From NCBI GenBank assembly GCA_038884815.1, contig JAWABC010000010.1:1-18760 (forward strand): DNA of 18,760 nt, given 5' to 3'. The stretch comes from Candidatus Nanoarchaeia archaeon (lineage in GTDB: Archaea > Nanobdellota > Nanobdellia > SCGC-AAA011-G17 > VGLX01). Positions 14,052-16,123 of this stretch are shown here, piece by piece. The translations under genes were made by a program, and so were the position numbers. Within the stretch, counting starts at the first letter, position 1. Each line of letters starts with the position of its first letter. The notes beneath the pieces are model-generated. The model saw only the letters and a program-made list of their open reading frames with translations, did no database searches and was not told where the DNA came from.

Positions 14052-14278
14052 TAAGAAAAAAATAAGGAGTTACTTTATTGCATAAAATCATAATATAACT
14101 CCAAAATATATATTCCAGCCAATAGACGTTCCGTCACTCACACACAAATTATTTATAAGCAATACAACATACTAACGTATTACCTCATGAAATAGAATCC
14201 GAAAAGGGAGGTAAAAGATGATATTCTCTTTTCCTAACTTTTCTGAAAAAAAATGCGAAAGCAAGGAGGTAAAGAAAA

Positions 14279-14554
14279 ATGGGGGACAGACCTGTGCAAA
14301 AATGGAGGATAGGTAACATGGAGGCTGCTCTGTGGGAAAATAAAAAAAGCATGAACGGCGCCGAAGTTACTTATTGGACTGTGTCCTTAAGCAGGGGCTA
14401 TAAAAAGAAGGATGAAGGTGTTTGGCGTAGTGAGGTTATAAATAACTTGAGGAGGAATGACATCCCAAAGTTGATTGCCATACTTGAGAAGGTTCAGGAC
14501 CACTTGTTTTTTGAGGTGCCAAAGTCTGAGCGAGAGGAAGAGGATGAGGAATGA
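14279..14554 (+). CDS. Small basic protein with an acidic C-terminal tail; possible PC4/YdbC-like ssDNA-binding protein
   Basis: AGGAGGT lies 8 nt upstream of the ATG. 91 aa ending SEREEEDEE. WRIGNMEAALWEN...VSLSRGYKKKDEGVW...L.RNDIPKLIAILEKV resembles the PC4 C-terminal-domain pattern by eye. Its stop is 9 nt from the radA ATG. Confidence 0.6.
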   Translation: MGDRPVQKWRIGNMEAALWENKKSMNGAEVTYWTVSLSRGYKKKDEGVWRSEVINNLRRNDIPKLIAILEKVQDHLFFEVPKSEREEEDEE

Positions 14555-14563
14555 GGTGGTAGC

Positions 14564-15559
14564 ATGAAAGAGGATAAAGTTGTTAAGGAAGAAAAAAAGG
14601 AGACGAAGAAAAAGAAGGAAGAGCTTACTATTTATGACTTACCTGGTGTCGGTGCTGCCACAGCAGAAAAGTTGCTCGAGGCTGGCTATTCTGATTTGAT
14701 GTCAATTGCCGTGGCTTCTCCTGGCGAGCTTGTGGAGGTTGCGGGTGTTGGCGAGGCTGTTGCAAGGAAGATGATTAATTTTGCAAGGAATTCTCTTGAC
14801 ATGGGTTTTGAGTCTGGTGATGAGTTGCTGCGGAAAAGACAAAATATAATCAAGATTACTACAGGAAGCAAGGCGTTGGATGCTTTGCTTGGAGGCGGCT
14901 TTGAGTCTGGTAGCATTTCTGAGTGTTTTGGTGAGTTCGGTGCAAGCAAGTCACAGATTGCCCACGCATTGGCTGTTAATGTTCAACTGCCAAGAGAGAA
15001 AGGAGGTGCTGAAGGTACTGCAATATTCATAGATGGTGAGTCAACTTTCAGGCCCGAGCGTATAATGCAGATTGCTAAGGCAGCAGGTTTAGACCCTCAC
15101 GAAGCTTTGAAGAACATAAAGGTTGCTCGTGCTTTCAATTCAGACCATCAGATGCTTCTTGCTGAGAAGGCTGAGGAGCTGATTAAGGAGAACAACGTTA
15201 AGTTAATCGTGGTTGATTCTTTGACTGCCCATTTCAGAGCAGACTTTACTGGCCGTGGTCAGCTTGCTGACAGGCAGCAGAAGCTTAACAAGCACATGCA
15301 CACTTTGATGAGGCTTGCTACTAAGTATAACCTTTGTGTTTATGTTACCAATCAGGTCATGGCAAAGCCAGATGTTTTCTTTGGTGACCCCACAGCTGCC
15401 ATCGGTGGTAATATTGTGGGCCATAACTCTCAGACAAGGGTCTATTTGAGAAAGGGGAAGAAAGGAACCAGAGTTGCTAAGCTTATTGACAGCCCGCATC
15501 TTCCTGATGGTGAAGCGATATTCCAAGTGACTGAAGAGGGCATCAAGGACGTTGACTGA
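14564..15559 (+). CDS. radA: DNA repair and recombination protein RadA
   Basis: HhH N-domain ([18 protein letters not shown]), Walker A region GEFGASKSQ, and FRPERI. Walker [14 protein letters not shown]. Also [13 protein letters not shown] and IGGNIVGH. Near full-length collinearity with archaeal RadA as recalled from Pyrococcus. Carries a 20-aa K/E-rich N-terminal extension. Confidence 0.93.
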
Positions 15560-15593: not shown

Positions 15594-15622
15594 CCTCTTA
15601 CTATCCGCCGTTGTGTCCAAAA

Positions 15623-16123
15623 ATGAAAATATTCAGGTCTAAACACAGCGAATTTCACGTATCAGACGACTTGATTAAAGAGTTTGAAGAGGATGTTGGT
15701 TGTTTTGATGAAGATCTAAACATCGAAATGGTTTTAGAAGATTTTGTTAAAGGTGACATAAAGGAGTATGTCAGTTTATATTCAAAACTTAGCGGGTTGA
15801 AAGGGTTTGGTTTGTTGTATGCCCACGGACAGGAAAGCGTTAGGGGGTGGCGTTATACCGATAAGGGTAAATCTTATAGCGTTCAAGGTTGGGTAAACAA
15901 TATGGATGGTAGATTCAATGCTTTGGTTATAGATGTCTGTAACCCAAACTCAAGAGGGGTGCATTCAAAAAAGTCTCTTATCATAGCCCCCAATCAGATT
16001 TACTCAAGTTTGAGGCAGGACATCGGTGATGTTCAAGTAGAACTTTTTGTTCCTAAAATAGGTTACCTTGATAGCTACATCTTTGAAGAAGAATTGGAAT
16101 CGTTGAGAAGGAAGATAAGTTAA
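15623..16123 (+). CDS. Hypothetical protein (166 aa from ATG 15623)
   Basis: ORF-track frame 15611-16123; ATG 15623 (MKIFRSK) is the more plausible start. No family recognised. Contains a strand-HG (LLYAHG) and a strand-C (LVIDVCNP). Confidence 0.55.
   Translation: MKIFRSKHSEFHVSDDLIKEFEEDVGCFDEDLNIEMVLEDFVKGDIKEYVSLYSKLSGLKGFGLLYAHGQESVRGWRYTDKGKSYSVQGWVNNMDGRFNALVIDVCNPNSRGVHSKKSLIIAPNQIYSSLRQDIGDVQVELFVPKIGYLDSYIFEEELESLRRKIS

Follow-up and report, generated by a model that had tools for sequence, protein, structure and literature searches.

What does a small gene without a name do when it stands directly before the archaeal recombinase gene radA? The question is raised by a stretch of 18,760 nucleotides from a Candidatus Nanoarchaeia archaeon (assembly GCA_038884815.1, contig JAWABC010000010.1; the whole stretch is called the window here), where a 91-residue protein, P0001, is encoded just upstream of radA (P0002) on the same strand (Table 1). 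The original prediction, made from the letters of the window, took P0001 for a PC4-like protein that binds single-stranded DNA (ssDNA) and partners RadA, possibly in place of RPA or SSB. We find that the small open reading frame (ORF) is a genuine gene of a large unnamed family, kept before radA in most of the DPANN (Nanoarchaeia) archaea searched. Its product is, somewhat more likely than not, a lineage-wide recombination accessory, an ssDNA binder helping RadA beside the canonical OB-fold RPA. New here are the RPA inventory of this genome, a quantified profile–profile test against archaeal PC4 proteins, and the complementarity with PC4-domain proteins of a sister family in the same phylum.

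The features from which the original prediction started could all be read directly and are also in the ORF listing: the 91-residue frame, a strong Shine-Dalgarno sequence (ribosome-binding site motif GGAGGT) and a C-terminus reading SEREEEDEE. The basic body was confirmed, residues 1–78 having an isoelectric point (pI) of 9.6 and a net charge of +4, as was the close spacing to the next gene, with the stop codon 9 nucleotides before the radA ATG and overlapped by the radA Shine-Dalgarno sequence. Homologues can be aligned with P0001 from its very first residue, which supports the start codon. The start of the small gene is overlapped by a further ORF of 32 codons lying upstream (window 14218–14316), which has a GGGAGGT of its own.

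A word-indexed search returned 27 close homologues of about 90 residues at 55–80% identity, aligned from the first residue with no frame problems. An exhaustive phmmer search of 1.8 billion cluster representatives gave 375 representatives at E ≤ 1e-3, and a profile search with the family added 213 further proteins; identity falls to about 30% within the family, with the motifs kept. When considering high-quality genomes of the window's phylum, 325 of 401 carry the gene, almost always in single copy, and 230 of 280 genera are represented (the tally includes six genomes flagged as unpublished, G243, G244, G322, G333, G360 and G396, which enter this presence count only and on which no claim depends). 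P0001 belongs to no Pfam, NCBIfam or PHROG family and has no Pfam match even at E 10; scans of 80 relatives against Pfam, NCBIfam and PHROGs gave nothing meaningful, two profiles searched against PDB sequences gave no match, and the ESM Atlas offered unnamed clusters but no named one. No Pfam domain is present in any of the homologues, the sole name among them is "hypothetical protein", and we found no publication on the family or on a conserved small gene before archaeal radA. With no name in Pfam, NCBIfam or PHROGs, the family is invisible to routine annotation. Taxon labels in the Atlas first gave the impression of a bacterial family, an impression rejected when members about 40% identical proved to be archaeal and also to precede radA; true bacterial or mobile-element members exist as a minority.

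The pairing with radA, which the original prediction had asked to see in related lineages, is kept. Of 36 genome loci at species level, 35 have radA as the next gene downstream, and the 36th stops at a contig edge. A metagenome scan with a distant subfamily as query (27–40% identical to the window protein) returned 403 relatives, of which 80 were kept, and an archaeal radA (58–71% identical) follows directly in 71 of these 80 loci; those without it, where checked, ended too near a contig edge to tell. Among genome and metagenome loci together, none with enough downstream sequence was seen to lack radA. Translational coupling, also claimed originally, fits the 9-nucleotide spacing in the window, but such tight spacing is local: over 101 related loci the gap has a median of 42 nucleotides, being at most 60 in 75 loci and at most 150 in 94. 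It is thus the operon-like adjacency of the two genes that is conserved, rather than translational coupling itself, and with 94 gaps of 150 nucleotides or less, co-transcription with radA is likely everywhere.

Further upstream, 49 related loci have an RPA1-like gene (OB fold and Rep_fac-A_C) on the same strand at a distance of no more than 2.5 kb, and a gene for a YdjM-family membrane protein directly precedes the small gene in 27, giving the recurrent order RPA1-like, YdjM, small gene, radA. In E. coli, ydjM is a member of the LexA regulon. A loose ssDNA and recombination neighbourhood of this kind, with RPA1-like and YdjM genes before the small gene and radA, is seen in many relatives (L083:2185-3681, L104 and L165-L167); in the window the cluster is broken, and RPA is found on contig C31. 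The window's remaining genes do not accompany the pair: the upstream glycosyltransferase is found again in the closest relative alone, and among the related loci CarS is matched once, weakly and at a different position.

The proposal that the small protein substitutes for RPA or SSB in a reduced genome is refuted by the inventory of the window's own assembly (926,773 bases, 90.4% complete), which encodes three OB-fold ssDNA binders, one RPA1-like, one RPA2-like and one Ssb-like (Table 1). The bacterial-type SSB family PF00436 has no match in P0001 or anywhere in the genome.

The charge layout read in the window extends to the family. Among 136 members the core is positive in 97%, with a median pI of 9.6, and the tail has a net charge of −2 or lower in 69%, with a median of −3. 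The conserved positions are P5, K8, R10, G12, W19, N21, R39, Y41, K42, W49, D61, P63 and K64, chiefly aromatic (W19, Y41, W49) or basic (K8, R10, R39, K42, K64). Though the tail of P0001 itself ends in EE, a hydrophobic or aromatic last residue is present in 50 of 115 related tails, and ends in which acidic residues are followed by hydrophobic ones, such as EEDIY, IIEEVI and FEEIVM, are common among relatives.

AlphaFold2 models were built from 27 sequences (predicted local distance difference test, pLDDT, 80.8) and from 136 diverse sequences (pLDDT 91.0, predicted template modelling score 0.76). Both have strands at residues 7–11, 14–25, 28–42/43 and 48/49–53, followed by a helix from about residue 60–61; the acidic tail has low confidence or is disordered in the first and continues the helix (61–90) in the second. 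The predicted protein thus has four strands with no OB barrel, and its beta-beta-beta-beta-alpha topology is that of the PC4-like superfamily, whose domains are defined by a beta4-alpha repeat and form helix-swapped dimers (PMC7549692, PMC3575825). Searches of PDB with both models by Foldseek gave best E-values of 0.19–0.3 and no significant match to PC4, YdbC or Whirly; the weak top matches include the OB proteins uS17 and Mycoplasma SSB (2hql), and members of the PC4-like superfamily and levivirus coat proteins, the latter counted as PC4-like (PMC7549692), recur among the weak ones, which is a hint only. Against BFVD the best E-value was 0.045, to unnamed proteins. If the protein works as a helix-swapped dimer, as is probable, this by itself may make a monomer model superpose poorly.

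Is P0001 then a PC4 relative? The original prediction aligned it by eye with human PC4, and the register proposed there (R-x-Y, a tryptophan, and a helix opening with N-D-I-P-K) was found again by hhalign against archaeal PC4 proteins; the PC4 sequences for the comparison came from a PF02229 scan, supplemented with the PC4-like protein of phage T5 (PDB ID: 4bg7). The 136-sequence family profile matched 13 archaeal PC4 proteins with P 0.017 over 33 columns, and 33 PC4 proteins with their tails removed with P 0.019, the alignments spanning 31–33 columns. The score of 14.8 exceeded those of all 200 column shuffles (mean 8.65, standard deviation 1.73, maximum 14.6), with the reversed profile reaching 9.9. 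In this register R39-x-Y41 falls on "R-E-Y/F" of PC4, W49 and the following T/S on "Y-T-G-x-T", and the helix start "N-D-I/L-P-K" on "R-I-P-x-E-K-F/W". The same register was obtained from two independent family subsets, with P 0.011–0.22.

Several results fall short of supporting this kinship. The signal is fragile, being lost with a narrow profile of Woesearchaeota only or with a PC4 profile restricted to the sister family described below (P 0.2–0.8), cross-scoring of hidden Markov models (HMMs) against sequences of the P0001 and PC4 families did no better than reversed sequences, and against the single T5 sequence hhalign gave a probability of 0.1%. PC4 is not among the Pfam families listed (25 of 28) at E ≤ 1 for the 80 members scanned, and PF02229 has no match in the whole window genome at E 10. 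Compared with PC4/Sub1, YdbC (DUF2128), PUR and Whirly, P0001 lacks a PF02229 match and has a beta2–beta3 hairpin about 10 residues longer; PC4, YdbC and the T5 protein are absent from its structural matches, and the P of about 0.02 depends on the profile. The PC4-like reading is thus supported by topology and register, and is not supported by an HMM match, a significant structural match or a robust profile signal (P 0.01–0.02). We regard kinship to PC4 as plausible, not demonstrated, with the chances perhaps even. The T5 protein, for comparison, is small, stand-alone, of this fold class and tied to recombination, not transcription, having been implicated in recombination-dependent replication (cited in PMC7549692); it differs in having an extra helix and no acidic tail.

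Three settings of relatives outside the radA context are of replication type. On an archaeal tailed-virus contig in IMG/VR (L049:4992-5234), an 80-residue relative lies between an MCM helicase/YopX block and genes for terminase, portal and Mu-F proteins. A planctomycete plasmid carries a relative about 2 kb from RepA, and in the 460-residue P0172 the domain follows an AEP-TOTE primase domain (E 1.8e-29) as a C-terminal fusion. The 177-residue P0149 is a tandem duplicate in one chain, a hint, no more, that two repeats together make up the working unit. Longer fused forms were searched for generally and almost none were found. The virus, plasmid, primase-fusion and tandem settings agree with a module that binds DNA, probably ssDNA, and works in pairs.

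On the reading that we favour, that of an accessory acting beside RPA, the small protein would share a transcription unit with RadA and would probably act as a dimer. Its basic four-stranded sheet, with the conserved aromatic and basic residues listed above, would bind ssDNA or a junction of single- and double-stranded DNA, and the acidic tail would fold back on the DNA-binding face until displaced by DNA, or would dock on RadA or RPA, in the manner of bacterial and phage SSB tails. The net effect would be that RadA is helped to replace RPA on RPA-covered ssDNA. Bacterial and phage SSBs (E. coli SSB, with its DDDIPF end, T7 gp2.5 and T4 gp32) show a similar combination of a DNA-binding body, predicted in P0001, and an acidic tail, with the hydrophobic end in many relatives. 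Phage recombinase–SSB pairs such as Sak4 with its cognate SSB (PMC5928155) are a further parallel, P0001 too being encoded beside a RecA-family recombinase. Unlike these SSBs, P0001 has neither an OB fold nor a PF00436 match, its own tail is purely acidic, and a canonical RPA is also present.

A bolder reading brings in the true PC4 proteins of the phylum. PF02229 finds PC4-domain genes in 42 of the 401 genomes (10 above the curated cut-off), and the matches concentrate in f38, the tool label for the sister family, with genomes of 0.5–0.9 Mb. Of 81 f38 genomes, 2 have the radA-linked family; in a second draw, again of 81 f38 genomes (completeness of at least 85%), a PC4-type gene is present in 75. 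The f38 proteins have 82–116 residues, with a PC4 domain, a linker and a long acidic tail ending in ELPDY, DIPDY or EIEDY, a build that matches a bacterial-SSB-tip-like architecture placed on a PC4 fold in archaea. These tail-bearing proteins extend the PC4 fold to archaea, unlike in the 2013 paper on YdbC, where PC4 and PUR-alpha are given as absent from archaea (PMC3575825), and unlike in a 2020 review of PC4-like domains, where the word "archaea" does not occur (PMC7549692).

The f38 proteins resemble P0001 in size class, in having a beta-rich core, a helix and an acidic tail, and in being present where the radA-linked family is absent; they differ in having recognisable PC4 domains and in not lying beside radA, and the two families share no similarity at the HMM level. 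We considered the f38 gene as a positional orthologue and rejected this, as radA is absent from its surroundings to a distance of 1.5 kb; of the f38 radA loci four were examined, and there radA comes straight after YdjM with no room for a small gene, an RPA1-like gene being identified before YdjM in three. That the f38 PC4 protein may functionally replace the small protein is one reading, and a single lineage event is no proof of it. Its fullest form, in which P0001 would be a so far unrecognised recombination mediator throughout DPANN archaea and an obligatory RadA partner, a non-OB ssDNA binder of PC4 type with an SSB-like tail that loads RadA on RPA-coated ssDNA or hands such DNA to it and is functionally interchangeable with the f38 PC4 proteins, seems to us possible, if doubtful.

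The main rival to an ssDNA-binding accessory is a small regulator that binds RadA directly and not DNA, tuning filament assembly through an acidic C-terminal helix or tail that imitates ssDNA. DinI and RecX act in this way on bacterial RecA, whose gene commonly shares a transcript with recX. They resemble P0001 in their small size and their genetic coupling to a recombinase, DinI also using an acidic C-terminal helix, and the fixed operon partnership, the conserved acidic C-terminus and the continuation of the tail as a long helix in the better model would all suit such a role. However, DinI and RecX have other folds and mimic DNA or cap filaments, with no basic body for DNA binding, and P0001 shows no sequence similarity to any Pfam family, theirs included. 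A pure DNA mimic would have no need of a core that is basic almost throughout the family or of conserved aromatics of exposed type, and the relatives on the virus, on the plasmid and in the primase fusion occur without a recombinase. We consider such a regulator unlikely.

P0001 might also be a small, general nucleic-acid-binding protein parked before radA by chance, serving in the nucleoid or regulating transcription of the radA operon, much as PC4, Whirly and PUR proteins act on transcription in eukaryotes. Against this, the synteny is strict over more than 200 genera while the other neighbours are shuffled, which points to RadA itself as the functional partner, and transcription factors do not feature acidic tails with SSB-like tips, so that we think a general role quite improbable. 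Slightly less probable still is a small subunit or associated factor of archaeal RPA (RPA14/RPA3-like), its C-terminal helix entering the RPA bundle and its link to radA being secondary. The frequent RPA1-like gene upstream is consistent with this, as are the small size, the beta-rich body with a long C-terminal helix and the weak Foldseek matches to uS17 and 2hql, but a check for the RPA small subunit (Rep_fac-A_3) gave no Pfam match, the four strands do not form an OB barrel, and here the RPA1-like gene lies on another contig. That the ORF is a chance frame or annotation artefact with no functional gene, for which nothing speaks beyond its small size and missing database name, is already refuted by conservation, with hundreds of homologues undisrupted in frame from the first residue, motifs conserved at about 30% identity and a model of pLDDT 91, and has next to no chance of being right.

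The partner gene deserves brief description. RadA matches NCBIfam NF003301 (E 2.9e-146) and Pfam Rad51 (8e-97), in addition to its HhH domain. Its Walker A motif (window 14930–14953) reads GEFGASKS in place of GEFGSGKT; among 116 related loci GEFGASKSQ occurs in 4, all close relatives, and GEFGSGKTQ in 42, so the change is a recent one in a small clade. In some loci (L005, L013, L016, L017, L021-L023, L027-L029 and L036) the radA alignment is split by inserts of about 1.2–2 kb near P0002 residues 130, 160 and 290–300, which are probably inteins. After radA, the window has a 170-residue ORF (15611–16123) with no Pfam family and no match in the related loci compared.

Table 1. Positions of the small gene, its signals and radA in the window, and of related ssDNA-binding genes elsewhere (loci given with their own coordinates)
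Feature	Position	Strand	Basis
Gene for 91-residue P0001, unannotated family (ATG 14279, stop TGA 14552-14554)	14279..14554	+	ORF listing and homologues
AAGGAGGT, Shine-Dalgarno-like, 8 nucleotides before the small-gene ATG	14263..14270	+	direct reading
Basic core, residues 1-78 of P0001	14279..14512	+	AlphaFold2 models, conservation, charge
Acidic C-terminal tail, residues 79-91 of P0001, net charge -6	14513..14551	+	sequence, models, tails of relatives
GAGGTGG, radA ribosome-binding site, overlapping the small-gene stop codon	14553..14559	+	direct reading
radA (P0002), 331 residues, archaeal recombinase with N-terminal HhH domain (ATG at 14564)	14564..15559	+	profile matches
RPA1-like protein, 344 residues, two OB stretches and Rep_fac-A_C zinc domain	same genome, other contig		
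RPA2-like protein, 235 residues, OB fold and RPA_C	same genome		
Ssb-like OB protein, 120 residues	same genome		
f38 PC4-domain protein	L133:1369-1692	-	PF02229, 39.9 bits
f38 PC4-domain protein	L134:1438-1743	+	PF02229 above cut-off
f38 PC4-domain protein	L141:1405-1680	-	PF02229 above cut-off
f38 PC4-domain proteins	L144-L162		PF02229 above cut-off

The way in which RadA reaches ssDNA covered by RPA is understood only in part, the known helpers being RadA paralogues, and archaea are not known to have BRCA2, Rad52 or RecFOR. The small gene supplies a concrete candidate for a RadA helper: across more than 200 genera of archaea with reduced genomes it is fixed before radA, RPA is often no more than a few kb away, and its product has an SSB-like charge layout. 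If the protein were indeed an obligatory PC4-type partner of RadA, interchangeable with the f38 proteins, then PC4-fold proteins would be a second, ancient class of archaeal ssDNA-handling factors.
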